Shown here in pieces: positions 29,896-50,149 of a stretch of 64,000 bases of DNA (position 1 is the first letter of the stretch; each line of letters begins with the position of its first letter). The notes under the pieces are model-generated. The model had not been told where the DNA came from. It did no database searches and saw nothing but the letters and a program-made list of their open reading frames with translations. The stretch spans positions 32,001 to 96,000 of the forward strand of contig CAVTNB010000003.1 of the NCBI GenBank assembly GCA_963736005.1, read 5' to 3'. The translations under genes and the position numbers were made by a program. Source of the DNA: an uncultured Pseudomonadota bacterium. GTDB lineage: Bacteria > Vulcanimicrobiota > Vulcanimicrobiia > Eremiobacterales > Eremiobacteraceae.

Positions 29896-31325
29896 ATTCC
29901 AGTTTCTTCGCCGGGGCGGAGTATTTTCAAAAGATTAGTGCGGCCCGCGACACCGAGCGGTGTGCCGCCAACGAGAACCACTGCCTGGCCCTTGACCACG
30001 ACCTCAAGCGCCAGGAGTTCTTCCTCGACCACCGCGATTAACTCGTCAGTCGTCTTGCCAAAATCCAGGACCCGCGGCTGCACCGCCCAGTCGAGCATCA
30101 GTCGGTGCGCAATCGTTTCGTTAGGCACGAAGGCGTACACGGGAACCGATGGCCGGTCCTTGCTGACGATGCGCGCGGAAAAACCAGTGCGCGTGAATGC
30201 GGCGATGGCTTGCACGTCGATCGATTCGGTAATCGAAATGGCAGCCTGCGAGATGGCTTGCGAATCGCTGGTCACACTAGTGCGGCGCCGGTCGCGAGTG
30301 GGTGGAAAGCTGCGCTCCACTTCGAACGAGATACGAACCATTGTCGCGACGGACTCAATTGGGTATTCACCTGCGGCTGTCTCGCCCGAGAGCATGATTG
30401 CGTCGGTGCCGTCGATAATCGCGTTTGCGACATCCGAGGCCTCAGCGCGAGTGGGTCGAGGGCTGTGAATCATCGATTCGAGCATCTGCGTGGCGGTAAT
30501 CACCGGCTTGAGGTGAACGCGTGCGCGCTGGATGATCTGTTTCTGGAGGGTCGGAACGCGCTCGGGAGCCATTTCGACGCCGAGGTCTCCGCGCGCAACC
30601 ATAACGGCGTCGGCGACATCCAGGATTTCCTCGAGGGCGTCGACGGCTTCGGGTTTTTCGATCTTCGCCACGACCGGCGTATCGGCGCCTGCTGCTTGTA
30701 CTGCGTCTTTTGCATCTCTCACGTCGGCCGCGCTTCGCACAAACGAGAGGGCGATAAAATCCGCTCCCTCGCGTACGGCCAGCGCAAGATCGTCTCGATC
30801 TTTTTCCGTCAGCGATGGCGAGGATACATGCACGCCCGGGAGGTTCATACCTTTGTGCTCGCCGAGCTCGCCGCCATTGACGACCGTCGTCGCGACGACC
30901 GAACCACCCGAAGAGACGACGCGCAATTCGATCTTGCCGTCGTCAAGGAGAATACGATCGCCGGCTTTGACATCATTTGGCAGAGCCGCATAGGTCGTTG
31001 CGACCCGTTGCGCATTACCTACGACATGTGCGGTCGTTATCTCGAATGGCGCACCGCTTACAAGATGGACGGGCTCGTGCCCCTCGAGCTCACCAACCCT
31101 GAGCTTTGGTCCTTGCAGATCTGCAAGCACCGACACGATCGCGCCGCACTGACGCTCGGTCGTTCGGATGAGCCGAGTCCAGTCGCGAAACTGATCTCGG
31201 GTCGCATGTGACATGTTGATACGAAAGACGTTGACGCCGGTGTCGACGAGCTGTCTCAAAATTGCCGGCTCGCATGACGCGGGTCCGAGCGTGGCAACGA
31301 TCTTGGTGCGTCGAAACGGGTTCAC
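29892..31325 (-). CDS. pyk: Pyruvate kinase
   Basis: RRTKIVATLGPA, DLQGPKLR, AKIEK, MVARGDLGVE, ATQMLESM, LSGETA. The GTG start overlaps the purN stop. Confidence 0.96.
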   Translation of the reverse strand: MNPFRRTKIVATLGPASCEPAILRQLVDTGVNVFRINMSHATRDQFRDWTRLIRTTERQCGAIVSVLADLQGPKLRVGELEGHEPVHLVSGAPFEITTAHVVGNAQRVATTYAALPNDVKAGDRILLDDGKIELRVVSSGGSVVATTVVNGGELGEHKGMNLPGVHVSSPSLTEKDRDDLALAVREGADFIALSFVRSAADVRDAKDAVQAAGADTPVVAKIEKPEAVDALEEILDVADAVMVARGDLGVEMAPERVPTLQKQIIQRARVHLKPVITATQMLESMIHSPRPTRAEASDVANAIIDGTDAIMLSGETAAGEYPIESVATMVRISFEVERSFPPTRDRRRTSVTSDSQAISQAAISITESIDVQAIAAFTRTGFSARIVSKDRPSVPVYAFVPNETIAHRLMLDWAVQPRVLDFGKTTDELIAVVEEELLALEVVVKGQAVVLVGGTPLGVAGRTNLLKILRPGEETGM

Positions 31326-31957
31326 GCCGGGCACCGCTTTGCAATCCATCGCAAGACGCCCTCGCGCACGACCTCCTGCTCGACAACATGCAGCCGTACG
31401 AGCGCTGTGGCTTCGTCTTCCTGCGGCGACAATTGCATGGGTTTGCGCGCCAAGACCGGTCCGCGGTCGACGCGCGGTGTAATTTCGATGAGGCTCGCGC
31501 CCGTGCAGGGTACTCGGGCCTCCAGGGCATCGCGCAATGCTCGGGCGCCGCGAAATGCCGGCGTCAGCGTGCCATCGGGAAAGCGCACCGTGTCGGCCGC
31601 TGGATCTTCTGGCAAATAAGCCGGATGCAGATTGAGGACGCCCTCGAACCCGGCGGTGAGAAATTCCGGCGCAAGCACGTGCATCCAGCCGAGCAGCAAG
31701 ACCAATCGCGATCCGCTCGTTCGGATCACTGATGCGAGACGAACGGCATACGCGGCTCGATCTTCTTTCTGGCGGTCGAAGATTGCGACTGATGTGGGAA
31801 TCCCAGCGCGAGTGGCGCGCTCGAGCGCAAGAGCATCGGCATTGTTTGAGACGACCAGCCGGATGTCGAGCGGCAACAATCCGGCACGCGCCGCATCGAT
31901 AACGGCCTGCAGATTTGTGCCGCTCCCGGAGGCCAAGATTGCCGTCGCTGTTGGCAT
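31322..31957 (-). CDS. purN: Phosphoribosylglycinamide formyltransferase
   Basis: ASGSGTNLQAVID, LLGWMHVL, NLHPAYLP, VDRGPV; directly downstream of purM. Confidence 0.88.
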   Translation of the reverse strand: MPTATAILASGSGTNLQAVIDAARAGLLPLDIRLVVSNNADALALERATRAGIPTSVAIFDRQKEDRAAYAVRLASVIRTSGSRLVLLLGWMHVLAPEFLTAGFEGVLNLHPAYLPEDPAADTVRFPDGTLTPAFRGARALRDALEARVPCTGASLIEITPRVDRGPVLARKPMQLSPQEDEATALVRLHVVEQEVVREGVLRWIAKRCPA

Positions 31958-31958
31958 G

Positions 31959-33023
31959 CTAGGCGCCACCGACAATCACGCTGGGGCCGCATTGATGGCG
32001 TGGCTCGACTTCACCGACGATGGCCGCAGCTCCAACGGCTCCGTTGATTGGTTGCGCTGCTAGCGTCTCGTTTGCTGTCCTCACAGCACGTTGCGCATCC
32101 TGCGGCGACACAACCAGACAGAATCCAACCCCCATATTCAGCGTGCGGTATGCTTCATCTAAGGAAAGCCGCGCTTCGCGTGCGACCAGCGCCACGACAG
32201 GTGGCACCCGCCAGCTCGCCGCGTCGAAGCGAGCCGCCAGTTGATCGGGCAGCGCGCGCGCAACATTGTCGATCAAACCGCCCCCGGTGATATGGGCCAT
32301 GCTCTTTATCGTGACGCCGGACTGTTGAACCGCGCGTACGACTTGCAAATAGCTCGGGTGTATGGCAAGGAGTGCATCGCCAATAGTTGTTGCGCCACCC
32401 TTCGCAACTGGTTCGCTCCATCGTGCTTGCGCGAGCACTTTGCGCGCCAGCGAATAGCCGTTGGTATGGAGCCCATTGGCCGGCAAACCGACGATCGCAT
32501 CTCCAGCGCTGACGCTGGCCAGATCCAGCATGTCGCGCCGCTCGAGCGCGCCGACGATCGTCCCCGCAAGATCGAAAAGCGGTGGAGTATAGACGCCCGG
32601 CATCTCGGCCGTCTCGCCACCGAGGAGCGCCATGCCATTCTCTCGACACGCGTTTGCGATACCGCCCACGATTGCTTCCGCGGCGTCAGCGTCAAGTTTT
32701 CCCATCGCAAGGTAATCCAAAAAAAACAAGGGCTGTGCGTTCGAGCAGAGCAGATCGTTGATGCAGTGATTAACGAGATCGGCTCCGATGCCCGAATAGC
32801 GTCCAAGAGTTGCCGCAACGATGACCTTGGTACCGACGCCATCGGTGCTAGCCACCAGCACCGGCTGGCGAAACCCTTCCAGCGAAAAACTTCCGCTGAA
32901 GCCACCGATGCCTCGGAGCACCCGCGGGTCGGCGTGCTGGTCGAGAATCGACTGATAACGCGCGACCGTTTGGTTTGCAGCGTCGATGTCGACGCCCGCA
33001 GCGCGGTAAGCATCCTCCTTCAT
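31959..33023 (-). CDS. purM: AIR synthetase
   Basis: YRAAGVDI, STDGVGTK, PLFFLDY, GGETAEMP, GLHTNGYSL, AHITGGG, TLNMGVG. Confidence 0.96.
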   Translation of the reverse strand: MKEDAYRAAGVDIDAANQTVARYQSILDQHADPRVLRGIGGFSGSFSLEGFRQPVLVASTDGVGTKVIVAATLGRYSGIGADLVNHCINDLLCSNAQPLFFLDYLAMGKLDADAAEAIVGGIANACRENGMALLGGETAEMPGVYTPPLFDLAGTIVGALERRDMLDLASVSAGDAIVGLPANGLHTNGYSLARKVLAQARWSEPVAKGGATTIGDALLAIHPSYLQVVRAVQQSGVTIKSMAHITGGGLIDNVARALPDQLAARFDAASWRVPPVVALVAREARLSLDEAYRTLNMGVGFCLVVSPQDAQRAVRTANETLAAQPINGAVGAAAIVGEVEPRHQCGPSVIVGGA

Positions 33024-33155
33024 AATATATTGCGTCGTTTGTCGCTCGGGTTGGCCCTCCCTATGCACGTGCCAAGGTCGCTTTGTCGGCTTTGTATAAT
33101 TGATACCGTCACGTCGTTCATGGAGCATCGAACCTTTCGGTTCGGGAGATACCTA

Positions 33156-34707: not shown

Positions 34708-34716
34708 CGTTTATTT

Positions 34717-34780: not shown

Positions 34781-35347
34781 TCACCGCGTCAGTGTCAGCG
34801 TATGCTGCAGTTGGAACTTTGCTTCCCCGTTTTCGGGAATCGTGACGTCCGTCTTGCTGTTGAGCCCGTAGAGAACGCCGGCGCTCAGGCCAAGCGCACC
34901 CCCAACGTTGGTCCCCAGCCATTTGCCGAGGATGTTGCCCGCGATCATGCCCCCCAACGCTTCAAGCGCAACGGTTCCGACATTGTTTTTCTTATTCTCT
35001 TCGACGGAGATCAGATTGGCGTAAATAATGCTCGACGCTCCATTACTCAGGGCGATCTTGTCGATCATAAAACTCAACTCTGGTTTCGTGCCCTGACCAG
35101 CCTTGCGCGCATTCACAACTCTCGCGTATAACTTGGCGCTAGCGAACGCGGAGTCGCCATTCGGATACGGCGAGCGCACCGTAAACGAAAAAGTCTGACC
35201 CTGGTATGCGTTCTTCGAACTAATCGAATTGTTTGACGTTGCATAGATATAGGCGCCGGCGGGCACGGTGATTGTTCTAGCAAGGGCCGTTACCGGGGCG
35301 AGCAGGCACACGATCAGGACCCATGGTGCGAGATGCTTGATGTGCAT
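34781..35347 (-). CDS. Secreted hypothetical protein with a glycine-zipper segment
   Basis: GAGGAG RBS, signal peptide, VPAG...ISSKNA..GQ.F beta-domain, GGMIAGNILGKWLG..VGGALG. Confidence 0.75.
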   Translation of the reverse strand: MHIKHLAPWVLIVCLLAPVTALARTITVPAGAYIYATSNNSISSKNAYQGQTFSFTVRSPYPNGDSAFASAKLYARVVNARKAGQGTKPELSFMIDKIALSNGASSIIYANLISVEENKKNNVGTVALEALGGMIAGNILGKWLGTNVGGALGLSAGVLYGLNSKTDVTIPENGEAKFQLQHTLTLTR

Positions 35348-35400: not shown

Positions 35401-36861
35401 CTAGTGGGGGACGGCTTGCGGTTCGCGTACTTTCCCGGTCAGCTCTTCATGGATGCCCACAGGATAATGACCGGTGAAACAACCCATGCAAAAATCGCTC
35501 CTGGGACGACCCGTCGCTTCGACAAGAGCATCTTCGCTCAGGTAGCCGAGAGAGTCGGCATTGATCGCCTGTTGAATCTCGGGAACGGTGAAGTTGGCGG
35601 CAATCAACTGCTCGTACGTAGCGGTATCAACACCCAAGAAGCACGGGTGCCGCATGGGCGGACACGTCAAACGCACGTGCACCTCTGAAGCACCAGCGCG
35701 TCGGAGCATGGCAACCAACTGGCGTGTGGTCGTGCCGCGGACAATTGAATCATCGACGAGCACGATCCGCTTGCCCCGAAGATTGGCCACCAGCGGATTG
35801 AATTTGAGCTTGACCCCCTGCGCACGCATGCTCTGATCCGGCGCAATGAACGTCCGCCCAATGTAACGGTTCTTCATGAGGCCTTCGATATATGGCAATC
35901 CGGATTCGTCAGCATACCCGATGGCGGCTGCCGTGGCGCTGTCCGGAACGCCGATGACGACATCGGCGGCAACGGGGCACTCGCGCGCAATGGCGCGGCC
36001 CATCCGGTAGCGGGCGAGATAGAGCTCCTGACCAGCATACATCGTGTCGGGCCGAGAGAAATAGATATATTCAAAGATGCAATTGGCAGGTTTGTACTCT
36101 GTCTCAACCTTCCGCGAGCGCATACCGCGCTCGTCGACAATGATGATTTCCCCGGGCTCGACCTCGCGCACAAACTCCGCACCCACGGTGTTGAGCGCGC
36201 ATGATTCAGACGCGATCATCCAACCCTCGCCGTAACGGCCGACGCACAGTGGCCGGACGCCCCACGGATCGCGGAATCCGAACAACTGCTGTTCGGTTGC
36301 CAAGACAATGGAAAAGGCCCCGATGCACCGCCGCATGATGGCTGCGATTCGCTCTTCCATGTCGCCGTGGTCCATTGCAGCGATCAGCTTCGCGAGAACA
36401 TCCGAGTCAGAGTCTGCTGCCTCGGAGATTTCTGGCGCGAGCTGGCGGCGAAGCGCTTCAGTGTTGACGAGATTCCCGTTGTGGGCAAGCGCAAAGGCCC
36501 CGAGGGCGCTTGTCGCAAGCAAAGGCTGCGCGTTGTACACGACGGACGAGCCGGTCGTAGAATAGCGGGTATGGCCAACTGACAAGTACCCGGGCAGGCC
36601 CGCCAGAATTTCTTCGGTGAAAATCTGCGACAAGAGACCCATCTGTTTGTGGACGCGCAAGTCCCTGCCATCGGATACAGCAATGCCGGCGCTTTCCTGA
36701 CCGCGGTGCTGGAGAGCGTACAATGCGAAGTAGGTTGGGCGAGCGACATCCTCGCCCGGCGCAAAGATGCCACACACGCCGCACGCGTCGTGTACGGCGT
36801 CCTCACTGCCGCTTGGCTTTGGGATGTATGGTTGGTGCACGTCCCGCTCGAGCTCTCCCAT
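35401..36861 (-). CDS. purF: Amidophosphoribosyltransferase
   Basis: Propeptide then CGVCG, LQHRGQESAG, GHTRYST, HNGNL, VDDSIVRGTT, Fe-S Cys (CIFE, CFLG, CMGC). Confidence 0.97.
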   Translation of the reverse strand: MGELERDVHQPYIPKPSGSEDAVHDACGVCGIFAPGEDVARPTYFALYALQHRGQESAGIAVSDGRDLRVHKQMGLLSQIFTEEILAGLPGYLSVGHTRYSTTGSSVVYNAQPLLATSALGAFALAHNGNLVNTEALRRQLAPEISEAADSDSDVLAKLIAAMDHGDMEERIAAIMRRCIGAFSIVLATEQQLFGFRDPWGVRPLCVGRYGEGWMIASESCALNTVGAEFVREVEPGEIIIVDERGMRSRKVETEYKPANCIFEYIYFSRPDTMYAGQELYLARYRMGRAIARECPVAADVVIGVPDSATAAAIGYADESGLPYIEGLMKNRYIGRTFIAPDQSMRAQGVKLKFNPLVANLRGKRIVLVDDSIVRGTTTRQLVAMLRRAGASEVHVRLTCPPMRHPCFLGVDTATYEQLIAANFTVPEIQQAINADSLGYLSEDALVEATGRPRSDFCMGCFTGHYPVGIHEELTGKVREPQAVPH

Positions 36862-36892: not shown

Positions 36893-38185
36893 TCAACGAA
36901 CCGCCGCCGCCGCGTGTTCGCCGATGTCGCAACGGTAGCGAAGCGAGAGGCCGGGCGGCAAACCGGTGATGTACCGCTCGACGCTTGCGTAGGCTCGCTT
37001 GCGAGCGTCGGCCATCTCATCGCCGAGCGCGCAAACGGTGAGGACACGGCCTCCGGATGCGTTGACCGATCTTGCGATCAGTGTCGAACCACCCCAAAAA
37101 GCCACGACATCGTCCGTCGGAGGCTCAAAGGGCGGCAACCCGTCCACCGGGTCGGATCGCTGTGGATAGTTCTGTGAGCAAAGCACGACCCCCACGCAGG
37201 CGCGCGACGAGAATTTCGGGGGCTCGCAGTCCGTCAAGCTCCCATTCGCTGCCGCACGCAGCAGGTCGGAGAAATTACCCTCGAGGCGCGGGAGGACAAC
37301 CTCGGTTTCCGGGTCGCCAAACCGTGCGTTGAACTCAAGCAGCATGGGCCCGCGCTGCGTCATCATCAATCCGGCGTAGAGGCAACCGCGGTAGTCGATG
37401 CCTTCGCTTTTGAGGCCAAGGAGCGTGGGCTCCAAGACCCTTTGGCGCACGAGTTCGAGCTTGGCTGGGTCGAGTACGTCGTCAGCGGGCGAGTACGCCC
37501 CCATGCCGCCTGTATTGGGTCCACTGTCGCCATCGTTGGCGCGCTTGTAGTCGCACGCACCGGCAAGCACGTAATACTGCTGGCCGTCCAGTACCGCCAT
37601 AACGGAGACTTCGCGACCTTCCAGCAGCTCTTCGATGACGATCGTCGTGCCGCCACCGGGAAGCTTGCGTTCGCCGTACCACCGAGCCAACACAACGCGG
37701 GCATCGTCCGCATTCGCGCAGACAACGACTCCCTTTCCAGCAGCGAGACCGTCTGCTTTCAACACAACGCCCTTTGGAAAATGTGCTAGCGCTCGTTCCG
37801 CTTGCTTGAGGTCGTGTGCTTCGCGGTGCCGCGCCGTGGGTACGCCGTGACGATCCATGAACTGCTTCGCATATGCCTTGCTCGTTTCAAGACGCGCGCC
37901 GGCGCTGTTTGGGCCAAAAACCGAAATGCCAGCTCCACGGAGCGCATCTCCAACTCCCGCGGCGAGTGCCGCCTCGGGACCGATGACTGCAAGATCGATC
38001 TGCTCGCGCAGCGCGCGTTCGACCAGCTCGAGCCTCGAGGTGGCCGCAATTGGCCAATTCGTGCCGAGCAGGGCGGTGCCGGCATTCCCGGGCGCTGCGA
38101 AAATCTGGTCGATGCTCTTTGATGCGGCGAGCTTCCAGACGAGCGCATGCTCTCTCGCTCCAGAGCCAACAACGAGCGCCTTCAT
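36893..38185 (-). CDS. purD: Phosphoribosylamine--glycine ligase
   Basis: VGSGAREHAL, KADGLAAGKGV, GPNTGGMG, EFNARFGDPE. Confidence 0.97.
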   Translation of the reverse strand: MKALVVGSGAREHALVWKLAASKSIDQIFAAPGNAGTALLGTNWPIAATSRLELVERALREQIDLAVIGPEAALAAGVGDALRGAGISVFGPNSAGARLETSKAYAKQFMDRHGVPTARHREAHDLKQAERALAHFPKGVVLKADGLAAGKGVVVCANADDARVVLARWYGERKLPGGGTTIVIEELLEGREVSVMAVLDGQQYYVLAGACDYKRANDGDSGPNTGGMGAYSPADDVLDPAKLELVRQRVLEPTLLGLKSEGIDYRGCLYAGLMMTQRGPMLLEFNARFGDPETEVVLPRLEGNFSDLLRAAANGSLTDCEPPKFSSRACVGVVLCSQNYPQRSDPVDGLPPFEPPTDDVVAFWGGSTLIARSVNASGGRVLTVCALGDEMADARKRAYASVERYITGLPPGLSLRYRCDIGEHAAAAVR

Positions 38186-39732
38186 TCCCATTCGATGGTT
38201 GCGGGCGGCTTGCTCGTAATGTCGTACACCACTCGGTTGATTTCGGGAATCTCGTTGACGATGCGCGTCGAAATTTTCGCCAGCACCTCGGGGGCGAGGC
38301 GCGACCAGTCCGCGGTCATCCCGTCATCGCTTGCCACGGCGCGTATGGCGACCATGTTGCCGTAGGTCCGAAAATCACCCATGACTCCGACGCTGCGCAG
38401 CGGCGTGAGGACGGCGAAATATTGCCAAGGCTGCTCGGGTCCCCCGCGCTCGATTTCTTCGCGCGCGATGGCGTCGGCTCGTCGCAGCACGGATAGTCTC
38501 TGTTCGTCGACAGCCCCGAGAATGCGCACGGCCAGTCCAGGACCGGGAAACGGCTGTCTCTTCACGACGTGGTTGGGCAAACCAAGCTCGAGCCCCAGGC
38601 GGCGAACTTCATCCTTAAAGAGGAGCCGTAATGGTTCGATCAGCTTCAAGTTCATGATGTCCGGCAGTCCGCCCACGTTGTGATGCGTTTTTATCTTCGC
38701 CCCTCCTTTACTGAGCGGCGTCTTACTCTCGATCACATCTGGGTACAACGTGCCTTGCACTAAAAAGTCAACGCCTGGAATTTGCTTTGCCTGCTCTTCG
38801 AAGACCGCAATGAATTCGCGCCCGATGATGACCCGCTTCTCTTCTGGATCTTCAATGCCGGTGAGCTTATCGAGAAACCGTTGACTCGCATCGACGGCGA
38901 TCAAGTTGAGGTGCAACACGCCGCGGAATGCCGAAATAACTTGCTCGGCTTCTCCCTGTCGCAGGAGGCCGTGGTCCACGAAGATGCAGGTGAGCCGATC
39001 GCCGATCGCCCGTGCTACAAGCGTTGCCGCAACGGCGCTGTCGACCCCTCCGGAAAGGGCGCAGATCGCTCTTGCGGTGCCAAGCTGCGCGCGGATCTCT
39101 TCCACCGCAGCGTCGACGAAGGATGTCATCTCCCACTGCTGGTGCAAACCGGCGATCTTGCGCAGGAAATTTCGCAAGATTGTGCGCCCGTGTTCCGTGT
39201 GCTGCACTTCGGGGTGGAATTGCACGCCGTAGCGCTGCGTCTCGGGATCCCCGAACGCCGCCAGTGCACACGTCGGCGTGTGGGCAAGCTTGATGAAGCC
39301 CTTCGGCATTTCTGTGACCGTGTCGCCGTGGCTCATCCACACGAGAAACTGACTGGGCACGTCTAAGAACAGCAACGATTGGGCGGCATCCACCGTGAGC
39401 TCCGCGCGTCCATACTCCCGGATCGCTCCTGGTACGACTTGCCCCTTGCATGCGTAGGCGAGCTCCTGCATGCCGTAGCAAATGCCAAGAATGGGCTTGT
39501 CCGACTCCAAGATCTGCGGATGGATGTGCGGCGCACCCGACTCCAGGACGCTTTGGGGCCCACCCGTCAGGATGAAGGCGGACGGTTTGCTCCTCGCGAT
39601 TTCATTCCAGGGCGTGTCGTAAGAAAAGATTTCGCAGTAGACGCGCTCCTCGCGAACGCGACGGGCGATGAGTTGCGCGTATTGCGCCCCAAAATCGATG
39701 ATGGCAACCATCTCTGACGGTTGGTTTTTCAC
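38182..39732 (-). CDS. guaA: GMP synthase (glutamine-hydrolysing)
   Basis: DFGAQY, GICYGMQ, QFHPEV, LSGGVDS, IKTHHNVGG, KPPATIEWE. Confidence 0.98.
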   Translation of the reverse strand: MKNQPSEMVAIIDFGAQYAQLIARRVREERVYCEIFSYDTPWNEIARSKPSAFILTGGPQSVLESGAPHIHPQILESDKPILGICYGMQELAYACKGQVVPGAIREYGRAELTVDAAQSLLFLDVPSQFLVWMSHGDTVTEMPKGFIKLAHTPTCALAAFGDPETQRYGVQFHPEVQHTEHGRTILRNFLRKIAGLHQQWEMTSFVDAAVEEIRAQLGTARAICALSGGVDSAVAATLVARAIGDRLTCIFVDHGLLRQGEAEQVISAFRGVLHLNLIAVDASQRFLDKLTGIEDPEEKRVIIGREFIAVFEEQAKQIPGVDFLVQGTLYPDVIESKTPLSKGGAKIKTHHNVGGLPDIMNLKLIEPLRLLFKDEVRRLGLELGLPNHVVKRQPFPGPGLAVRILGAVDEQRLSVLRRADAIAREEIERGGPEQPWQYFAVLTPLRSVGVMGDFRTYGNMVAIRAVASDDGMTADWSRLAPEVLAKISTRIVNEIPEINRVVYDITSKPPATIEWE

Positions 39733-40868: not shown

Positions 40869-41983
40869 CAGTTTGCGGGAACCCCGGGGCCAGGTACGGC
40901 GACCGACTCTCCGTTGTGCGCCGAGGATACGTCAAAGGACAATCGGCTCGCCCGGTCGAGGACGAGCTCGAGACTGTTCGAGAGCAGCGCGTTCTTGATC
41001 TCGCGTGCGATGCGCCGCCCGGTTGACATCGGTTCGTCATAGTTGAGATACGAATAGGGAGAGCCGTCAATGAAAAGGTTGGTGCCCGCAACGATGCGCG
41101 CGGAGATCTCCATAAGGAAGAATTCGGACTCCGACGTCACGATGGTCTCCAGGCAAAACGCGCCAAACAAACCGCGATCTGGACAGATCTCACGGCTCAC
41201 GCGCACGACGGCCTCGCCCATGTCGAATGCTTCCGCGAGGAGCGACTCCCGCAAGCTAATGGGTTGGTTGCCGATGACGACATAGGATGGCGAGATATCC
41301 CAGCCTTCCTGATCCGCGAGCGGAATGCGCCCCAGTGAATCTACGTTGCTTTCGTAACGGCGATCCATCGACATGATTTCGAGTTTGCCGGTCAGCGGCG
41401 AATAAAAGTAATGAATGTAGACGGGAACGCCGAGCACGTATTCTTGCATGATGTAGCGCTGCTCGACCAGGTGGGAGGCGCGCGCCGTAAAGTCCTCGGG
41501 GTTTTTGACAAAAAGATATCCCTTGCCGCCGTGCGCCCCATACAGTTTGACGATAACTGGGCGGTCGATCTCGCTCGCTTTCGTAAACTGCCGCGGCATC
41601 TTGAGGCCCGCCTTGGTGAGCCATTGGCGTTGGCGCATGCGATCGGCTTCCCAATCAAGCACCGCCTTGTTGCCGAAGTAGGGTGTCGTCATCCGCTTGT
41701 GCTCTTCCATTGAGAGATACGCCACGAAAGAGCCATGGGGGACGAGAATGACTTTGCGGCGATTGAGTTCTTGCTCGAGCTTGGGAAAATCGCCGTACCG
41801 GGGAATCACGATAACCTCGTCAACGAACGCGAAGCTTGAATACAACCGTTCGTTGAGTGGCGTCACCACGGCAAGCGTATGAAAGCCTTCGTCCTTGGCG
41901 CCCTTGAGGATTTGCAGCGCCGAGTGGCTGCCCAAGGTGGCGACAGTGAAGAGCGACGGCGGGTGCGTCGACTTGCGCTTCAT
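40868..41983 (-). CDS. purP: Formate--AICAR ligase (FAICAR synthetase), archaeal type
   Basis: ATLGSHSALQILKGAKDEGF, VPHGSFVAY, HYFYSPL, DRRYESN, LRESLL, EISARIVAGTN, MSTGRRIAREIK. ATG at 41983. Confidence 0.9.
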   Translation of the reverse strand: MKRKSTHPPSLFTVATLGSHSALQILKGAKDEGFHTLAVVTPLNERLYSSFAFVDEVIVIPRYGDFPKLEQELNRRKVILVPHGSFVAYLSMEEHKRMTTPYFGNKAVLDWEADRMRQRQWLTKAGLKMPRQFTKASEIDRPVIVKLYGAHGGKGYLFVKNPEDFTARASHLVEQRYIMQEYVLGVPVYIHYFYSPLTGKLEIMSMDRRYESNVDSLGRIPLADQEGWDISPSYVVIGNQPISLRESLLAEAFDMGEAVVRVSREICPDRGLFGAFCLETIVTSESEFFLMEISARIVAGTNLFIDGSPYSYLNYDEPMSTGRRIAREIKNALLSNSLELVLDRASRLSFDVSSAHNGESVAVPGPGVPAN

Positions 41984-42507
41984 TTTCCGCTCTTCGCCGC
42001 GGACGCCGCCGGTTCCCCGACTTGCAGGCTGACGGGGCGGCGGCGAATCTGGAAGCGCTGGGAGACTGGGTTGCACAGCAGCGCTGCACATGCCCATTCG
42101 AGCCGGTCGCGAGCGGCGGAGCCCTTTGCCTCGTAGAGTCTCCAGCCGATGGCTCGCTCTAGCCCGAGCAGCGCAGTCATCCCAAAGGTCGTCACCAAGA
42201 GGTCCTGGAGCGGCCGGTTGTTCTCGTCCCTGTCGCGCACGAGTGCTTCGAACTGCGCGGGCTCGACGTCAGGCGCGTTCTCTGCGGCGTAACTCAGGCG
42301 ATGTTTGTTGGGGTTAAAGATGACTTCGGCATGCGACAGCTCGCTCGCGACCTCATCCGCGCGGGTACCATCCAAAACCTTAAGCAAAATGTGCTCCGAG
42401 CGCTCGACGTTCGTGAGTTCGGTGTAACCCAAGTGGTGAAGAGAGGTCAGCACGGTGAAGGCCGTGTTGTCGGGGATGATAGAGTCGATGGCAACGTCTA
42501 TTCTCAT
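41980..42507 (-). CDS. purS: Tandem two-domain PurS-like protein
   Basis: Two modules of about 80 aa ending in IFNPNKH and CAALLCNPVSQRF (canonical PurS ends C..LLANPV.E.Y). The first module has D....TV...L..LGY..L..V.R. It lies in the purL/purQ cluster, which has no other purS. Confidence 0.6.
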   Translation of the reverse strand: MRIDVAIDSIIPDNTAFTVLTSLHHLGYTELTNVERSEHILLKVLDGTRADEVASELSHAEVIFNPNKHRLSYAAENAPDVEPAQFEALVRDRDENNRPLQDLLVTTFGMTALLGLERAIGWRLYEAKGSAARDRLEWACAALLCNPVSQRFQIRRRPVSLQVGEPAASAAKSGK

Positions 42508-44021
42508 ATCGCTTCCACATAATCCGCCGGTGCCGTTTTATCAGCACCGCGCGGCACTCTCATGCCATCCAAGAAGAGCGTCAGCCCGATCGTCACCACC
42601 AGGTTCGCGATAAATCCATAGAGCGCCGCAAACCCCGGAACAACCAACGAGCCGAGATGCAACGGGTAGATGGAATGGAAACCATTCGATGCCGGCATGT
42701 AGGTCGCGATCGCCATGCCAACCAGCCATCCGCACAGCAGCGCTCGGCGATGGAACCAACGCGTATACATGCCAAAGATGAGTGTGGGAAACGTCTGGAG
42801 GATCCAGCCTCCCGCAAAAAGCTGAAAGTTGATTGCGTATTCGGTGGGCAGGCCGAGCACAAAGATGAGCGCGCCCAATTTCATCACAAGCGAGACAACT
42901 TTGGCATTGGTTGACTGCTGGCGATCGGTGCAGTTCGGGTTGATATATTCGCGATAAATATTGCGGGTGAAGAGGTTTGCCGAGGCAATCGACATGATTG
43001 CCGCCGGCACGAGCGCGCCGATTGCAATGGCTGCAAATCCAAAACCGGCGAACCACGGCGGAAACATTTTCAGGAACAGCTGCGGCACCGCTTCATTGGT
43101 CGTCTCGGGATTGATGCCCGCCGCAATTGCCATGTAACCAAACGTGGCCAGCACTGCCAGTAACAGGCTGTACATGGGCAACGCAATCATGTTGCGCCTG
43201 ATGACCCTCGGTCCAGAGGCGCTTAACACGCCGGTGATGTTGTGCGGGTACATGAAAATCGCTAATGCCGAACCGAGGGCCAGCGTGATGTAGGCGCTGT
43301 ATTCCGAAGGCGGCAAGAGCAGGCCAGTTGGTTTGGGTCTGACGGCCATCGCAGCGCCCGCCGCAGCGAAGATGTGCCCATAGCCTCCAAGCTTCGCTGG
43401 AATAATGATCGCAGCGGCGATGACCGTGATGTAGATGAGGGTGTCCTTTGCGATCGCCACGAGCGCCGGTGCGCGCAAGCCACCGCGGTATGTATACACC
43501 GCGAGGATGACAAAGGCGATGACGATCGGCACATCGCGCAAGATCCCAGTGCCTCCCAAACCCATCGCCTTGATGACGACCTGGATGCCCACGAGCTGGA
43601 GCGCAATGTACGGCATGGTGGCGGCAATGCCCGTGACCGCCACCGCCAGCGACAGGCTGCGGCTGTCATAGCGCTCGCGGGCGAAGTCTGCATAGGTGAT
43701 GTAGCCCCGATTCTTTGCGATGGTCCAAAAGCGCGGCGCAAAGATAAAAACCAGCGGGAAGGCGATCGCCGTGTACGGCAAAGCGTAGAACGCAAGCGCT
43801 CCCGTGCCATAAACGAAACCGGGCACCGCGATGAACGTGTAGGCGGTGTACAGATCGCCGCCGATGAGAAACCAGGAAATGAGCGTGCCGAACTGGCGCC
43901 CTCCAAGCGCCCATTCATGCAACAGATCCAAATTGCCGCGGCGCCAGTACTGACCGAGGAATCCCAAGACCGTGACGAGCCCGAACAACACAACGAAGAC
44001 GACAACTGCCGGCCAGATCAT
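42504..44021 (-). CDS. mctP: Sodium:solute symporter, monocarboxylate uptake permease MctP type
   Basis: LHEWALGGRQFG..ISWFLIGGDLYTAYTFIAVPG, ATMPYIALQLVG, GALVPAAIMSI, ANLFTRNIY. ATG at 44021. Confidence 0.85.
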   Translation of the reverse strand: MIWPAVVVFVVLFGLVTVLGFLGQYWRRGNLDLLHEWALGGRQFGTLISWFLIGGDLYTAYTFIAVPGFVYGTGALAFYALPYTAIAFPLVFIFAPRFWTIAKNRGYITYADFARERYDSRSLSLAVAVTGIAATMPYIALQLVGIQVVIKAMGLGGTGILRDVPIVIAFVILAVYTYRGGLRAPALVAIAKDTLIYITVIAAAIIIPAKLGGYGHIFAAAGAAMAVRPKPTGLLLPPSEYSAYITLALGSALAIFMYPHNITGVLSASGPRVIRRNMIALPMYSLLLAVLATFGYMAIAAGINPETTNEAVPQLFLKMFPPWFAGFGFAAIAIGALVPAAIMSIASANLFTRNIYREYINPNCTDRQQSTNAKVVSLVMKLGALIFVLGLPTEYAINFQLFAGGWILQTFPTLIFGMYTRWFHRRALLCGWLVGMAIATYMPASNGFHSIYPLHLGSLVVPGFAALYGFIANLVVTIGLTLFLDGMRVPRGADKTAPADYVEAI

Positions 44022-44233
44022 TCGCGCCCCGCGTCGTGCGCCAGAATATACACCGCCCAAATGATCAACGCCGTGGCCGCAATCCAGACGAACTGATACC
44101 AATAAAAAAACGGTACGCCGGCTATGGATGGCTCCATCGAATTGTACGAGGGGGCCCACAGCATGACTATATAGGGAACGACGAGCAACCAATACCAGCG
44201 TCGCCTAGCGGCGCCCGATTGTCGCTGCTGCAT
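44018..44233 (-). CDS. DUF3311 small membrane partner of the symporter
   Basis: WLLVVP..MLW.P.YN..EP.IAGVPFFYWYQ..W motif; overlaps the symporter start. Confidence 0.88.
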   Translation of the reverse strand: MQQRQSGAARRRWYWLLVVPYIVMLWAPSYNSMEPSIAGVPFFYWYQFVWIAATALIIWAVYILAHDAGRE

Positions 44234-44282: not shown

Positions 44283-44306
44283 GGCGATTTTCCAATCGCC
44301 CCTACA
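44283..44306 (-). repeat. REP family B overlapping the purQ stop codon
   Basis: ggcgattttccaatcgcccctaca. Confidence 0.8.
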
Positions 44307-45036
44307 TGTTCAAGGCGCGGGCCATGCTTTGAAAGATCAGGTCTGACGTTGAGGTCTTCATCGGGTCGAGCCCACGCAGCGTTGGATCGTCAAAAGCGAG
44401 ATTAAAGTTCCAGGCGACACGTTCGGGATGTGGCATGATCGCAAGGACGTTGCCCGCGGCATTGCAGATGCCAGCTGCTCCGTGCATGGCGCTGTTGGGC
44501 GCCGAACCAACGTAACGAAAAGTGATGCGTTGATCTCGTTCGAGCGCGTCGAAAAGCGCAGGCTCGCCCGTGAAACGACCCTCACCATGTGCCATCGCCA
44601 TCTTCATCCTGATGCCTTTGGGAAGGGCCGCCGTGAGCGCGCAGCGCTCTGGCACCGCGGCAAGCTCGACGTCAAGAATGCGACATTGGAAATGGCCGGA
44701 GGGGAGATTTCGAGCGATCGCGATCGGCCCGAGAAGGCCTGCTTCGGCAAGCACCTGTGCTCCGTTGCAAAGACCCAAGACTACCTTACCGCGGGTTGCT
44801 TCTTCCGCGACGACCGTGACGCTCGGCGATTTCGCTGCAATCGCCCCGGCGCGCACTCGATCTTCGAAAGCGAATCCGCCGGGCAGCACATACCCCGCAA
44901 AGTCCCGCAAATTGCCGGGCGGCTCACTCCAAAGAACGGCGCGAGCGTCGAGTCCCGCAGCCGTGCAAGCATCGACCGTCTCCTCTTCTGAATTGGTGCC
45001 GGGAAAAACCAGCACGGCGATTCGTGGGGCCTTCAC
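44302..45036 (-). CDS. purQ: FGAM synthase subunit PurQ
   Basis: FPGTN, LPGGFAFED, LGLCNGAQ, AHGEG, MPHPER. Confidence 0.95.
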   Translation of the reverse strand: MKAPRIAVLVFPGTNSEEETVDACTAAGLDARAVLWSEPPGNLRDFAGYVLPGGFAFEDRVRAGAIAAKSPSVTVVAEEATRGKVVLGLCNGAQVLAEAGLLGPIAIARNLPSGHFQCRILDVELAAVPERCALTAALPKGIRMKMAMAHGEGRFTGEPALFDALERDQRITFRYVGSAPNSAMHGAAGICNAAGNVLAIMPHPERVAWNFNLAFDDPTLRGLDPMKTSTSDLIFQSMARALNM

Positions 45037-47390
45037 GCGAACAAATCCCGGAGCGGACGCATCCAGCTTTCGGAAAGATCGGCGAGACCGACGCTACACA
45101 GACCCTCGATCGTCAGACTCGTGCCACCCGTGTGTCCGAGCCGGATCGGCGCAGCACCCGAGCCCCGAGCGAGATCCTCGAATCGATCGACCTCCTTGGG
45201 GTCTATCGTAACGACGAAGCCGCCCGATTCGCCGAAGAGCGCCGACGATGCTGGAATGTTCGGGGCCCACTGCTCCAGAGGAAGCAGCGAGGCGCCGATG
45301 CTTCCATTCCCTTCGCCTCCCAAGCACATCTCTGCGACGCACGCGAGCACGCCGCCATCTGAAATGTCGTGCGCTGCGGTGATGCTGCCAATGTGAATGC
45401 CCTTGAGAACGGTGGCGATGTCTGCATTGACTTCGTCGTAGTCGATTGCAGGCAGCGGCCCAGCGTCGCGCAGGTGCAGCACATCGGCTAAGACCGAACC
45501 GCCCAGCCCCGTGTCGCGTGCGCCGAGCAGATACAGATGCTGGTTCGGGAACATGATGTTCATCGTCACGATTTTGCCGACATTCTCGATGCGACCAATG
45601 CAGGCCACGATTGCCGATGGCACGATCGCAGTGCCTGACGCAGAATAGTTGTAAAGGCTGACGTTGCCGCTGATGAAAGGTAATCCATCCGCTGACGCTA
45701 CGGTGATCGCACGTGCCGCTTCTGCCAACCCCAAGACGCCGTCTGCAAGCTCGCGATAGGCAACCGGATCTTCCGGATTGCCGTAGTTGAGGCAATCGGT
45801 CAGGCCGATGGGCAAAGCGCCCACGGCAGCGACGTTGCGAGCCGATTCGACGACCGCGTGCGCTGCCGCCATTTTGGCGGAAATTGCTCCAAAGCGTGCG
45901 TTGCCGTCGACCGAAATTGCAATGGCCAGGGGAGAGCCGCGACGAACGACCAGCACGCCCGCATCCGCATACCCAGGGGGAAGAGCCGTCGCTCCTCGCA
46001 CGACCGAATCGTAGTGCTCGACGAGCGGCCGCCGGCTGCATACGTCTTGGTGAGACAAAACGCGAAGCAGGGTACCGGCAACATCTGAGAGCGGCGGCGG
46101 TGCAACCTGTGCGATCTCCGGCGGCGAAGGCGCAAGCGTCCAGCTAGCCCTGACCGGCTGCGTGAGAACGTCGATTGGCAAGGCACAGATTGAACGGCCG
46201 GCTGCGGTCAGAACGTACCAGGGCTCGCGGGTTACCGTTCCGATGACCGCCGCCCTCGCGTTGGCTGAAACTTCCGGAAGCGTATATCGCTCGTTGTACA
46301 GAGCGAGCAACTCCGTTGTGAACGAAGGCGGTACCGCCCACAACATGCGCTCCTGCGTCTCGGCCATTGCGACCACGAAGGGTGAAAGGCCGGCAAGCGC
46401 TACCGGAATTTTCTCGATGTCAATGCGCGCACCAAAACCGCCGGCGCTACACATCTCCGACGAACTTCCCATGATGCCGCCGGCGCCCAAGTCTTTAAAC
46501 CCCGCCTTGATCCCGCGTTTTGCAATGAGTTCAAACGCGGCATAACTTGCTCGCATGATCACATTCTTGAGAAACGGATCGGGAACTTGGACAGCACTTT
46601 TGTTCGCTTCTGCTTCTTGCGCATCCAGTATCAGCGAAGCGAAAGCGGCGCCCCCAAAGCCGGAGCCGTCGGTCGCCTTCCCAACCAGCACGAGGTCGTA
46701 GCCCTCGCCACAGGAGGGGACTCGGCTGTGAATGATCCGGTCGCGTTCGACGAAGCCAAGCGCGACAACGTTGACCAAGCAATTGTGACTAAAGGACGGG
46801 TGAAAGTACACGTCGCCTGCCAAGTTGGGAACCCCGACGGCATTCCCATAGGCCGCGATGCCATCCACCACACCGGTTGCAACGTAGGCTTGGTGTGAGC
46901 CAGCAACGGGTGGTCCAAAGCGTAATGGGTCAGCGCTTGCGACAACTTTCGCCCCCATGCAGAGCACGTCGCGCAAAACGCCTCCAATCCCGGTTGCTGC
47001 GCCTTCAAAGGGCACGACTTGCGACGGATGGTTATGACTTTCGTGTGCGACGACCACGCCGTATTCCGTGCCGTCAACAATTCCCACGCGCAAAATGCCC
47101 GCGTCTTCCCCAACCGGCACGAGCACATCAACGCCTTGGGTCGGTAATTGGGCCAACAGCGCGCGACTGCTTTTGTACGAGCAATGCTCGCTCCACTGAA
47201 TGGCAAAGGCGTGAGCCTCGGTGCGCGTTGGATTGCGCCCCAATCGCTCTCGAATCGCGCGCAATTCCTGGGGGGTGAGCGCAAGCGCCTCGCGGTCTGC
47301 GAGGCGCTTCAGTTCATCGTCGCTGCTCTCGTCAAGCGGCAGCGGTTGTGCCGCAAGCTCTATCAGGTCTGCCGTGGCAGCAAAGCCCAT
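45033..47390 (-). CDS. purL: FGAM synthase subunit PurL (small type)
   Basis: WSEHCSYKSS, ESHNHPS, GAATGIGG, DLGAGG, ETQERM, DCLNYGNP, SGNVSLYN, HDISDGG. Confidence 0.96.
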   Translation of the reverse strand: MGFAATADLIELAAQPLPLDESSDDELKRLADREALALTPQELRAIRERLGRNPTRTEAHAFAIQWSEHCSYKSSRALLAQLPTQGVDVLVPVGEDAGILRVGIVDGTEYGVVVAHESHNHPSQVVPFEGAATGIGGVLRDVLCMGAKVVASADPLRFGPPVAGSHQAYVATGVVDGIAAYGNAVGVPNLAGDVYFHPSFSHNCLVNVVALGFVERDRIIHSRVPSCGEGYDLVLVGKATDGSGFGGAAFASLILDAQEAEANKSAVQVPDPFLKNVIMRASYAAFELIAKRGIKAGFKDLGAGGIMGSSSEMCSAGGFGARIDIEKIPVALAGLSPFVVAMAETQERMLWAVPPSFTTELLALYNERYTLPEVSANARAAVIGTVTREPWYVLTAAGRSICALPIDVLTQPVRASWTLAPSPPEIAQVAPPPLSDVAGTLLRVLSHQDVCSRRPLVEHYDSVVRGATALPPGYADAGVLVVRRGSPLAIAISVDGNARFGAISAKMAAAHAVVESARNVAAVGALPIGLTDCLNYGNPEDPVAYRELADGVLGLAEAARAITVASADGLPFISGNVSLYNYSASGTAIVPSAIVACIGRIENVGKIVTMNIMFPNQHLYLLGARDTGLGGSVLADVLHLRDAGPLPAIDYDEVNADIATVLKGIHIGSITAAHDISDGGVLACVAEMCLGGEGNGSIGASLLPLEQWAPNIPASSALFGESGGFVVTIDPKEVDRFEDLARGSGAAPIRLGHTGGTSLTIEGLCSVGLADLSESWMRPLRDLFA

Positions 47391-48664
47391 CAGGTCCCCG
47401 CTTTACCACTCCCTGCGGGGGCGTTGAGCTGCGCGTCGGACTCGGTGACGTGCATGCGGTTGCGATACTGCGCAACGACGACTCGACCGTAGAGCACCGA
47501 ATCATCGGAGGCGAGAATTTTCGCAGCGGCAAGTGCAGCGTTTTCGGGCTCGAGGACGACCATGCTTGCGACCCCGCCCGGAAGAGCGAGACTGGAGACC
47601 ACTTCCATGCCGCCCCAGGTCGAACCAAGCACGGGGCAGGCGATGACCGGATTCGCCGTCGCGGCATCGACAAAGGCTGAGAGGGCGTTGCTTCTCCCGG
47701 CGATCGTTATGTAAACCGCCCGGCCGAGCATGTTGTCGATTTGCTGAACTTTTTGCAGCGCGTACAGAGGGGTCTTGTGGGCCGAGGCGACGTGACGGCG
47801 CGCTGGGACTCCCAAATTCTCGAGCGCTTTTGCAATCTTGTCTGCGTGCGCCGCATCCGAAGTCGAACCCATGATGATGCCAACGAAGCCACCGCCCCGC
47901 TTGGAGAATTGTCCGACACGCTCTGCAACTTCTTCGTACTTGGATTTTACGCTGTCGAGATCAGACGCACTCGGGACTGCGATGTTGCGATAGATTTGCT
48001 TGTCGAGCATCAGCGCTTGCTCGCCGGCGGGCCAAATTCGCCACGAGTCGTTGTCGATGACGTCCGCGAGGATAATCTCTGTGCCACCGTCTGCGGTCTT
48101 TGCGCGCCCGAATTCGACTTTGAGGTCGACGAGGAGCACGTTCTGTTGGCGCCAAGCATGTGCGAGGATGTCGAAGATCAGCCGCGCGTAGTCGGACATG
48201 ATGGCGACCTCGGCTTGGGTTGCGATCTTCTCTTCGACGATTTGCTCTGCCGTATACTGAGGATCGTGACGCGAGTCGTCTTTGAAGAAATACTCGACCA
48301 GGCGAGGCGCAAACACCGTGCCCGATTTGACGCCCGGGTTGCGCTTGAGATAGGAGCCTGCTGCGATGCCTCGCACGACGACTTCGATCGGAATCATCTC
48401 GCAGCGGCGCACGATCATCTCGTTTGCGTCTTCATCTTCACCGCCGCTGATGAAGTGCGTCGGCAACCCAGCCGCGTTGAGCAAGCGATAGACGCGGCTC
48501 GCCGTGAGCGCTGCGAGCCGGCCTTTGCCCGCAATGGTATGGCGTTTTGCCCCGTCGCCGGCCGTAATGTTGTCCTGCTGGACCACCACAAGTGCGTCCA
48601 TCTGATCGGGATGTTGGTAGAGTACCTTGGTCTTGCCGCGACCGACCTCAGCGCCTTTGTTCAC
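47390..48664 (-). CDS. purC: Bifunctional SAICAR synthetase / class II AIR carboxylase (PAICS-like PurC-PurE fusion)
   Basis: PurC: GKTK, ITAGDG, CEMIPIE, GSYLKRNPGV, FFKDD, DLKVEFG, ADVIDNDSWRIWP, DKQ. PurE: IMGSTSD, SAHK, AGRSNAL, PVIACP. Confidence 0.92.
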   Translation of the reverse strand: MNKGAEVGRGKTKVLYQHPDQMDALVVVQQDNITAGDGAKRHTIAGKGRLAALTASRVYRLLNAAGLPTHFISGGEDEDANEMIVRRCEMIPIEVVVRGIAAGSYLKRNPGVKSGTVFAPRLVEYFFKDDSRHDPQYTAEQIVEEKIATQAEVAIMSDYARLIFDILAHAWRQQNVLLVDLKVEFGRAKTADGGTEIILADVIDNDSWRIWPAGEQALMLDKQIYRNIAVPSASDLDSVKSKYEEVAERVGQFSKRGGGFVGIIMGSTSDAAHADKIAKALENLGVPARRHVASAHKTPLYALQKVQQIDNMLGRAVYITIAGRSNALSAFVDAATANPVIACPVLGSTWGGMEVVSSLALPGGVASMVVLEPENAALAAAKILASDDSVLYGRVVVAQYRNRMHVTESDAQLNAPAGSGKAGT

Positions 48665-48698
48665 GGATCCTCCCTCTTGCGTGTGTCGTTGTTCGAAT

Positions 48699-48724
48699 GT
48701 AGTCGCGCGAATTTATTCGCGCGC
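48699..48724 (+). repeat. REP family C overlapping the purB 3' end
   Basis: GTAGTCGCGCGAATTTATTCGCGCGC; the purB TAA stop lies in the palindrome loop. Confidence 0.85.
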
Positions 48725-50149
48725 CCGAAGTTCAATATCCAAAACTTTTTGCGCCGCCTTTGCCTCGGCAAGGGTTCGCAGTGATGCCGCCAGTTTTCGA
48801 GCTCGCTGCGCCGCAAGCCCCGTGTGTTTTTCAACTTTCATCGCCTGCTGGAGTTCGCCCGGCTTCACGTATGTGGCGATGTAATCGTCCTGCTCAAGCA
48901 GGCCGGCAAGCGGATTGCGCTCGTCTTTCTCGACGGCCTCCCACGCGCGCATCGAGAGTTCTCGCAGCCGTTCGTGCAGCTCTTGCCGGTTCGCGCCGCG
49001 CTTCGCGGCCATCATCAAAACGGCTTCGGTACACGCAAAAGGCCCAAACCGTGCCAGGTTTCTGGCAATACCGGCCTTATCCACTCGCAGGCCGCTGATT
49101 ACCTTGTGCACGAGCGCCGTTATTTCATCTGCCGCCAAGAATGACTCGGGAATGATGGTGCGACGATTGGCGGAGTCGTCAAGCGTCCGTTCGAGGAGAT
49201 TGTCTGCCGCATTCTGCCAGGCAATCTGTGCATTCGCGGCGGGAATACGCGCCAGCGAGTTGATGCGCTCGCACAACATTGGGTTTCGCTTGAACGGCAT
49301 GGCCGACGAGCCGACTTGCTTGCGACCGAAGGGCTCGCCGAGCTCGCCGAATGGACTCGAGGCAAGCACCCGAAGATCGAAGGCGAATTTGGAACACGAT
49401 GCTGCAAAACCGGCGATGGCGCTCAGAACCATATAGTCGAGTTTGCGCGGATAGGTCTGGCCGCTGACGGCCAGGGCCGCGAGGTCGAACGCGGCAAGCA
49501 CGTCTCGCTCGAGATCGTCGGGCGAGGACTTTGCTTCCTTTAGGAGTGCGCTGTAAGAGGCGGACGTCCCCACAGCTCCCCGGAGGCCTTTGCTCGGCAG
49601 CCATGCCGCGATACGGCTTAGCTCCTGGTAGTCGATGAGCATGTCTTGCGCCCAGAGCGCAAGACGCATCCCGAGCGTCGTCGGCTCGGCCGCTTGGAGA
49701 TGGGTGTATCCCATACATGGCAGGTCTGCATACTCGTCAATCTTATCCGCGAAGATTTTGAGCGCATCGGCGATGCCGCTGACGAGCATGGAGAGCGCGA
49801 CTTTGATGCGGGCCGTTTCCACGTTATCTTCCACATCCATGGAGGTCGCGCCCAGGTGAAGCTTGCCACCGCCTATCTTAGCCTGCGATGCAAAGACCCG
49901 AAGTTCTGCCATGAGATCGTGGCCGATTTCGGCCTCGATGGTGTGCGCAGCCTTAATATCCACCGCGTCGACGTAGCGGCGCAGGTCCGCAACCTCTTCT
50001 TCGCTGACGAGACCCGCTTTGGATTGTGCCTGCGCGAGCGCCAGCCAAAGGCGCCGCCACATGCGGCGTTTGGTTTCTTCGGAAAACAGCGCCCGCATGG
50101 CTGGGCGGCCGTAGCGCCATGAAAATGGAGATTGGTAAGACTCGGTCAC
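48713..50149 (-). CDS. purB: Adenylosuccinate lyase
   Basis: YQSPFSWRY, LHLGATS, GYTHLQ, GSSAMPFKRNP, LERTLDDSANRR. Confidence 0.96.
   Translation of the reverse strand: MTESYQSPFSWRYGRPAMRALFSEETKRRMWRRLWLALAQAQSKAGLVSEEEVADLRRYVDAVDIKAAHTIEAEIGHDLMAELRVFASQAKIGGGKLHLGATSMDVEDNVETARIKVALSMLVSGIADALKIFADKIDEYADLPCMGYTHLQAAEPTTLGMRLALWAQDMLIDYQELSRIAAWLPSKGLRGAVGTSASYSALLKEAKSSPDDLERDVLAAFDLAALAVSGQTYPRKLDYMVLSAIAGFAASCSKFAFDLRVLASSPFGELGEPFGRKQVGSSAMPFKRNPMLCERINSLARIPAANAQIAWQNAADNLLERTLDDSANRRTIIPESFLAADEITALVHKVISGLRVDKAGIARNLARFGPFACTEAVLMMAAKRGANRQELHERLRELSMRAWEAVEKDERNPLAGLLEQDDYIATYVKPGELQQAMKVEKHTGLAAQRARKLAASLRTLAEAKAAQKVLDIELRARE

Follow-up and report, generated by a model that had tools for sequence, protein, structure and literature searches.

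A purine operon of Eremiobacteraceae with a PurP II/III pair of putative function kept across a bacterial class, and the displacement of class II PurE by class I

A probable second route for AICAR formylation

The window analysed here is the whole stretch of 64,000 nucleotides between positions 32,001 and 96,000 of contig CAVTNB010000003.1 (assembly GCA_963736005.1), from an uncultured bacterium of the Eremiobacteraceae. On its minus strand it carries a cluster of purine biosynthesis genes that includes two purP paralogs and a purC-purE fusion. On balance, this cluster appears to be the principal operon for de novo purine synthesis in its host, in which 5-aminoimidazole-4-carboxamide ribonucleotide (AICAR) would be formylated in parallel by a PurH encoded elsewhere in the genome and by the PurP pair. 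With purH, which is not linked to the cluster, included, the purine pathway has all its steps. What remains after PurH is a class-wide bacterial pair of PurP II and PurP III proteins, of putative function, and a series in which class II PurE is displaced by class I PurE.

In the route proposed, PurF, PurD, PurN (with folate), PurSQL and PurM would make 5-aminoimidazole ribonucleotide (AIR), which the fusion, of the PAICS type, would carboxylate directly with CO2, without PurK, before making the succinocarboxamide ribonucleotide (SAICAR) from which PurB would yield AICAR. Formylation of AICAR to formyl-AICAR (FAICAR) would be carried out by PurH with 10-formyltetrahydrofolate (10-formyl-THF), and by PurP-A and PurP-B, which probably act as a hetero-oligomer, with formate and ATP. 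The N-terminal domain of PurH would then close the ring to inosine monophosphate (IMP). An analogous doubling is described for E. coli, which has both PurN and PurT for glycinamide ribonucleotide (GAR) (PMC3261824).

PurH is encoded outside the cluster

The genome-wide hidden Markov model searches for purH, purO and purK that the first-pass annotation had proposed were run on the host genome (G000), which is 84% complete. They recovered a PurH of 521 amino acids on a different contig from the window (C1:1821481-1823028), in a single open frame with no stops and with both domains. It scores above the cut-off of NF002049 (539.6 bits against 402) and below that of TIGR00355 (463 against 528), a cut-off passed by the PurH of only 1 of 61 relatives, and its alignment with PDB 3ZZM covers the full length (E 2e-102). 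Matches to PurH occur in 60 of the 61 genomes of the relatives search and in all 47 of the high-quality ones. Several genome tallies given here (PurH, PF06973, PurU, FolD) include genomes flagged as unpublished (G008, G011, G013, G217, G240, G248, G250 and G265), as do two rows of the fusion alignment described below (L067, L082); no conclusion depends on unpublished genomes alone.

Thirty-five full-length PurH copies were aligned (the 20 best loci, 14 fetched sequences and the gene itself), leaving out the two-piece matches of G012, G017, G024, G026, G029, G030 and G037. Nine catalytic or binding site positions, including K282-H283, are invariant in 35/35, the roles of the other seven being those that we take them to have from human ATIC numbering. 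The cyclohydrolase motif GRVKTLHP is likewise present in every copy, and the Lys, Asp and Lys positions of the cyclohydrolase do not vary. PMC9525906 identifies the Lys-His pair as catalytic. By these residues, the protein is almost certainly the IMP cyclohydrolase of the genome.

The first-pass annotation had postulated an unidentified IMP cyclohydrolase, and had itself listed a canonical purH elsewhere in the genome among the findings that would count against it. Such a gene is present, in full length and bifunctional, in this genome and in 47/47 high-quality relatives, and therefore the postulated enzyme is not needed. Its account of missing genes stands for the cluster, in which none of purK, purH and purO is found. 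At the level of the 84%-complete genome it stands for PurO (no PF07826 match) and PurK (no PF17769 or TIGR01161 match over the cut-off) and fails for PurH. The archaeal PurP and PurO pathway, recognised by PurO being present and PurH absent, is thus not the arrangement found here. The genome also contains purA and folD. A second PurE was sought, and the other AIRC-family match proved to be LarB; this larB (L003:677-2151, on contig C1) lies outside the purine cluster and adjoins a larE-like gene, named from its sequence.

Identity and distribution of the PurP pair

Both PurP-A (40868..41983, minus strand) and PurP-B (39729..40868, minus strand) carry PF06849 and PF06973, and neither reaches the NCBIfam PRK13278 cut-offs. 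They were assigned with the criteria of Brown et al. (PMC3261824) that separate cluster I from cluster II. PurP-A has the cluster I features, namely a glycine P-loop (HGGKG), N239 at the position of Asn258, H20 and R296; relative to the (K/R)GG(K/R)G consensus it has His at the first position, where relatives have Q, L, A or K. It would belong to cluster Ib (PurP II), the choice of Ib over Ia being made by its best PDB match, PF1517 (2R84, E 2e-102), and not by a tree with named archaeal references. PurP-B has the cluster II features, namely a loop (QHAKVKYER) that is two residues longer and has no glycines, H276 at position 258, H27 and R334. Its best PDB match is Methanocaldococcus jannaschii (MJ) PurP (2R7K, E 3e-63), and by sequence it is classed as a cluster II (PurP III) protein.

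The division between the paralogs is consistent across relatives, with Asn at position 258 in 55/55 PurP-A rows and His in 44/44 PurP-B rows. Equivalents of the formyl-contacting His27 are found in 54/55 PurP-A and 43/44 PurP-B rows, and equivalents of Arg314 in the same numbers of each (54/55 and 43/44). The presence of both residues in both genes makes the formate- and ATP-dependent second formylation put forward in the first-pass annotation plausible, and we lean towards the pair being a formate/ATP AICAR formyltransferase, probably heteromeric. Structure prediction of PurP-A with PurP-B gave a score of 0.38 against 0.01 for the best control, with at least 93% contact agreement between runs and a partner pLDDT (predicted local distance difference test) of 84. 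Of the solved pairs, 116 of 157 passed the mark used, as did 2 of the 215 mismatched ones; at scores of 0.60 or under, the passes were only 18 solved pairs and both mismatches. The prediction lends weak support to a complex, and the pass may reflect likeness, the two proteins being paralogs with solved family members.

In an even sample of a larger group, restricted to genomes of 80% completeness or more, PF06973 occurs in 243/243 members of the class that holds the Eremiobacteraceae and Vulcanimicrobiaceae (phylum Eremiobacterota/Vulcanimicrobiota) and in 0/58 from the rest of the phylum. Class genomes nearly always have two matches, and only five have one. A quick tree was built from 89 rows (class members together with 70 full-length sequences out of 150 representatives). 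In it the class sequences of each paralog fall into a single clade, with Shimodaira-Hasegawa-like approximate likelihood ratio test (SH-aLRT) values of 99 and 100, as would be expected had the ancestor of the class acquired the pair once. The sister of PurP-B in this tree is a Micrarchaeota-labelled protein, with an SH-aLRT of only 88. PurP-A is the best-conserved gene of the cluster between families, at 69-74% identity against 49-55% for PurL, and it exceeds PurH (51%), which argues for strong selection despite the apparent redundancy.

A 2019 survey of 1,403 genomes, including 1,266 bacterial operational taxonomic units (OTUs), found purP only in Archaea (PMC6486802). The same source places PurP II and PurP III in the same 61 archaeal OTUs, 10 of which also carry purH; the combination of PurP II, PurP III and purH is already known from archaea. 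Literature searches, which covered the titles and opening abstracts of the papers listed, gave no report of a bacterial PurP or of purine synthesis in this phylum. Public annotations already name the proteins, and bacteria make up most of one atlas cluster, Peregrinibacteriota being the commonest.

In sister family f2, other genes occur close to purP. A conserved protein of about 370 amino acids with a signal-peptide-like start is encoded directly after purP-A (L094:12167-13363, L103:11547-12698 and 7 more loci); none of the copies scanned, 4 of the 9, has a Pfam match. In some f2 genomes (L096, L097) purP-A and purP-B are separated by cytochrome bd oxidase genes, and a redoxin gene follows purP-B, before guaA. 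These inserts (cytochrome bd, redoxin and the Pfam-less secreted protein) showed no link to purines and were set aside.

Displacement of class II PurE in the sister families

The purC-purE fusion (47390..48664, minus strand; 424 amino acids, PF01259 and PF00731) matches insect (4JA0) and human (2H31) PAICS over its full length (E about 1e-88), much better than it matches any PurC or PurE of a single domain. It is identical to human PAICS at 16 of the 18 AIR-carboxylase site residues listed in PMC9376930, in which His303 is the general base. The site motifs are intact, reading MGSTSD, SAHK and IAGRSNAL against MGSTSD, SAHK and VAGRSNGL in PAICS (His303, Lys304). In an alignment of 56 distinct rows (77 before duplicates were removed; 28 from the family of the host, 24 of sister type and 4 from other classes), SAHK is present in 28/28 rows of the host family, a family in which PurK_C occurs in 0/32 genomes (completeness 55-98%). 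Direct, PurK-independent use of CO2, as the first-pass annotation supposed, is likely because the class II site residues are present in the fusion and the family has no purK; the fusion very probably has class II activity, converting AIR and CO2 to carboxy-AIR (CAIR).

The description of the cluster as a three-domain mosaic was overstated. Beyond the class, but within the phylum, 4 genomes carry PAICS-type class II fusions (L171, L173, L174 and L175, from G063, G065, G119 and G072, respectively), with intact class II motifs and about 44% identity. Many genomes of these other classes carry class I purE-purK, or no purE match. The atlas clusters nearest to the fusion are mostly eukaryotic. An animal origin is not established, given that other classes of the phylum carry the fusion too.

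In two sister families the situation is reversed, with PurK_C in 29/29 genomes against 0/32 in the family of the host. Their purK adjoins a separate PurE with the class I motifs SAHR and AGGAAHLPG (9/9 loci examined), and the fusion is retained in the same operon position (12/12 loci). The catalytic His of the fused PurE is absent in 24/24 sister-type rows and the GS-x-SD phosphate loop is lost, so that these fusions lack the marks of a class II PurE, while the PurC motifs are retained. Twenty-two of the 24 decayed rows are about 25 residues shorter, a shortening seen in the largest family; the other two, L099 and L131, of the small family type, are of full length. This is a class II to class I displacement caught in progress, the PurE half of the sister families being decayed. 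In these families purK and class I purE would carry out the carboxylation, and the fused PurE half would now be a non-catalytic domain. The PurE octamer forms the core of PAICS (PMC10484210), and the decayed domain may be retained as an oligomer scaffold. The sister-family PurK shares 31-39% identity with PurK of other classes and 43% with a single copy labelled Lysobacterales. The quick trees are unrooted and long-branched, and the contrast between the families may reflect either a gain of purK on the sister-family stem or its loss in the family of the host.

Formate and folate context

Among the 61 genomes, FolD is over the cut-off in 59, PurU in 14, Fhs in 2 and PurT in none. The host itself has purU (L205:3418-4275, on contig C1); purT and fhs were not found in its genome. 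All 29 TIGR01142 matches in the sister families are below the cut-off and lie at purK loci, and PurT was therefore rejected there. At 14/61 genomes, PurU was also dismissed as a class-wide formate source. In the PurN sequences the N-x-H-P motif is followed by about 10 inserted residues, and the Asn/His/Asp triad positions are kept in 21/21 class sequences; in the family of the host the His of the HxV motif is replaced. The idea that PurP is present because PurN or the transformylase of PurH has decayed was rejected, as no decay is seen in the alignments.

Alternative explanations

Several observations weigh against parallel formylation by PurH and the PurP pair. Where PurH is intact and FolD is present, a second formyltransferase would seem superfluous, and a pair that is never lost all the same may have another job. 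The Pyrococcus proteins PF1517 and PF0421 are each reported inactive, and activity is demonstrated for PurP I only, as described in PMC3261824. No class-wide formate source was found in the sets searched (PurU in 14/61 genomes, mctP in 3/20 loci). The host genome, at 84% completeness and in 6 contigs, has frame breaks in housekeeping genes. Finally, the 24 decayed PurE rows form one clade, f2 plus f3 (SH-aLRT 100, in a quick tree of the PurC half), and therefore the decay of PurE alongside purK is a single phylogenetic event and not 61 independent tests.

Another purine-linked task for the pair, be it PurT-like formylation of GAR or the binding, sensing or salvage of AICAR (ZMP), with PurP-B as a non-catalytic partner, is rather unlikely. 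The absence of PurT from all 61 genomes and the divergence of PurN, without the His of the HxV motif in the family of the host, would suit it, as would the inactivity of the isolated Pyrococcus proteins on AICAR and the retention of the pair by Korarchaeum without a de novo pathway (both PMC3261824); yet the formyl- and AICAR-contacting residues of MJ PurP are kept in nearly all rows, and the Asn/His/Asp positions of PurN in 21/21. The idea that PurP-B, or the pair, is the IMP cyclohydrolase, with PurP-A and PurP-B replacing both PurH activities, was raised by Brown et al. for archaea without purO and purH2, along with the remark that the phyletic pattern is imperfect (PMC3261824). It could draw on the His that replaces Asn258 at the carboxamide contact of PurP-B and on its different ATP loop. 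Its premise is gone in this genome, in which the cyclohydrolase motifs of PurH are intact, and the 10 archaeal OTUs with PurP II, PurP III and purH (PMC6486802) speak against it as well, leaving it improbable.

It also seems improbable that the pair serves formate assimilation, PurP making FAICAR and a reversed PurH transformylase returning 10-formyl-THF and AICAR, in place of formate-THF ligase. The equilibrium of the PurH transformylase favours AICAR and 10-formyl-THF, PurP and the transformylase domain are both kept class-wide, and Fhs is found in only 2/61 genomes and PurT in 0/61. However, the cyclohydrolase should drain FAICAR to IMP, many bacteria without Fhs are also without PurP (control genomes), and both Fhs-bearing genomes (G033, G038) still keep both PurPs. 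As a speculation of small probability, PurP II and PurP III could form an obligate hetero-oligomer that activates formate onto AICAR and, with reversed PurH, feeds the folate pool, with AICAR/FAICAR as the carrier. If true, this would be a bypass of formate-THF ligase made from one archaeal and one bacterial enzyme, the pair would be the only formate-fixing enzyme found in the class, and the obligate hetero-oligomer would explain the inactivity of the single Pyrococcus proteins.

Organization of the operon and its surroundings

The genes listed in the first-pass annotation, purB to purF and then purM-purN, were all recovered by the open reading frame list and family scans, on the minus strand between 31322 and 50149. 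The block, all of it on that strand, begins with purB, encoding adenylosuccinate lyase (48713..50149; TIGR00928, 362 bits against a cut-off of 326), which is followed by the fusion, by purL of the small type (45033..47390; TIGR01736, 643 against 526) and by purQ (44302..45036), just below its cut-off (TIGR01737, 176.5 against 177.8). Beyond the next three genes and the purP pair lie guaA, for guanosine monophosphate (GMP) synthase (38182..39732; NF000848, 756 against 400), purD (36893..38185; TIGR00877, 418 against 288) and purF (35401..36861; TIGR01134, 526 against 350). Between purB and purF there are 11 junctions, of which 8 are overlaps of 1-4 nt and the others gaps of 31-68 nt, and therefore the block reads as one operon.

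Separated from purF by an unrelated 188-aa gene and by pepA on the opposite strand are purM (31959..33023, minus strand; TIGR00878, 325 against 236), whose start is taken at the MKEDAY codon, the longest open reading frame beginning at 33128, and the divergent purN (31322..31975, minus strand), below its cut-off (TIGR00639, 124 against 150). The 188-aa gene (34781-35347), next after purF, has no Pfam or NCBIfam match and is present in 1/20 related loci.

Between purQ and purP-A, on the same strand, the operon contains a gene for a small DUF3311 membrane protein (44018..44233; PF11755), the monocarboxylate permease gene mctP (42504..44021; NF046076, 702 bits against a cut-off of 625) and a PurS-like gene (41980..42507; 175 amino acids, PF02700 at residues 2-72, E 6e-8). 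The first two form a patchy insertion, mctP being in the cluster in 3/8 loci of the host family and 0/12 of the sister families and DUF3311 in 3/20 related loci, and mctP is no core part of the purine cluster. It was rejected as a dedicated formate importer, at 3/20 loci and with a distant second copy on contig C2. The PurS-like gene keeps its position in 20/20 loci; the protein is twice the usual length and its halves align weakly with each other (hhalign E 8e-4, probability 24), so that it is possibly a tandem double PurS.

An Rfam scan of the window gave no match at gathering score. Three genes, the thrS-like gene (26982-28732), pepA (33144-34707) and holA (50273-51305), each occupy two overlapping frames, probably through assembly indels. 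A riboflavin block with ribD-, ribE- and ribBA-like genes lies upstream (51522-55927), as read from translation alone; in it, a ribH-like and an mtnA-like stretch share the single open reading frame at 51522-52901, as judged from the translation, which may be a frame artefact. The host is a soil bacterium. Its close homologues bear Eremiobacterota/Vulcanimicrobiota names, and the nearest records with a lineage label are Eremiobacteraceae, though some records are labelled otherwise.

Significance and comparison with known systems

The inactivity of the Pyrococcus proteins left the role of PurP II and PurP III in question, and a mesophilic class of bacteria with the pair in 243/243 genomes, beside a working-looking PurH, is a source of heat-independent enzymes. 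The occurrence of the pair beside PurH also argues against its existing only to replace a missing cyclohydrolase. The intact, intermediate and decayed states of the PAICS-type PurE, which track purK within the class, offer a clean natural series suited to the study of class I versus class II displacement and of what the PurE core does apart from catalysis.

The fusion resembles animal PAICS (human 2H31/6YB8, insect 4JA0) in domain order, in length (424 against 425 amino acids) and in its full-length match, and differs in being bacterial and in having sister-family counterparts with a degenerate PurE half and purK-purE(I) elsewhere in the genome. Its best stand-alone PurE match is the class II enzyme of PDB 3RG8/3RGG (E 3.5e-29), presumably from Treponema denticola, whereas class I PurE matches are weaker (E about 1e-11 to 1e-13); that enzyme stands alone, unlike the PurE of the window, which is fused to PurC.

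Both paralogs belong to the same family as M. jannaschii PurP (MJ0136, 2R7K; PurP I) and have its His27 and Arg314 equivalents. The archaeal protein, however, is a single-gene formate/ATP FAICAR synthetase working with PurO, and PurO was not found in the genome analysed here. The closer likeness is to the PF1517 (2R84) and PF0421 pair of Pyrococcus furiosus, in which the two subfamilies are also adjacent in a pur cluster and show the same split between P-loop and long loop and between Asn and His at position 258; in contrast to the archaeal PurP II and PurP III pairs, the one described here has a bacterial host and is fixed across a whole class. Methanosarcinales likewise have purN and a full-length purH beside PurP II and PurP III (PMC3261824); in the bacterial set the pair lies inside the main operon and purH outside it.

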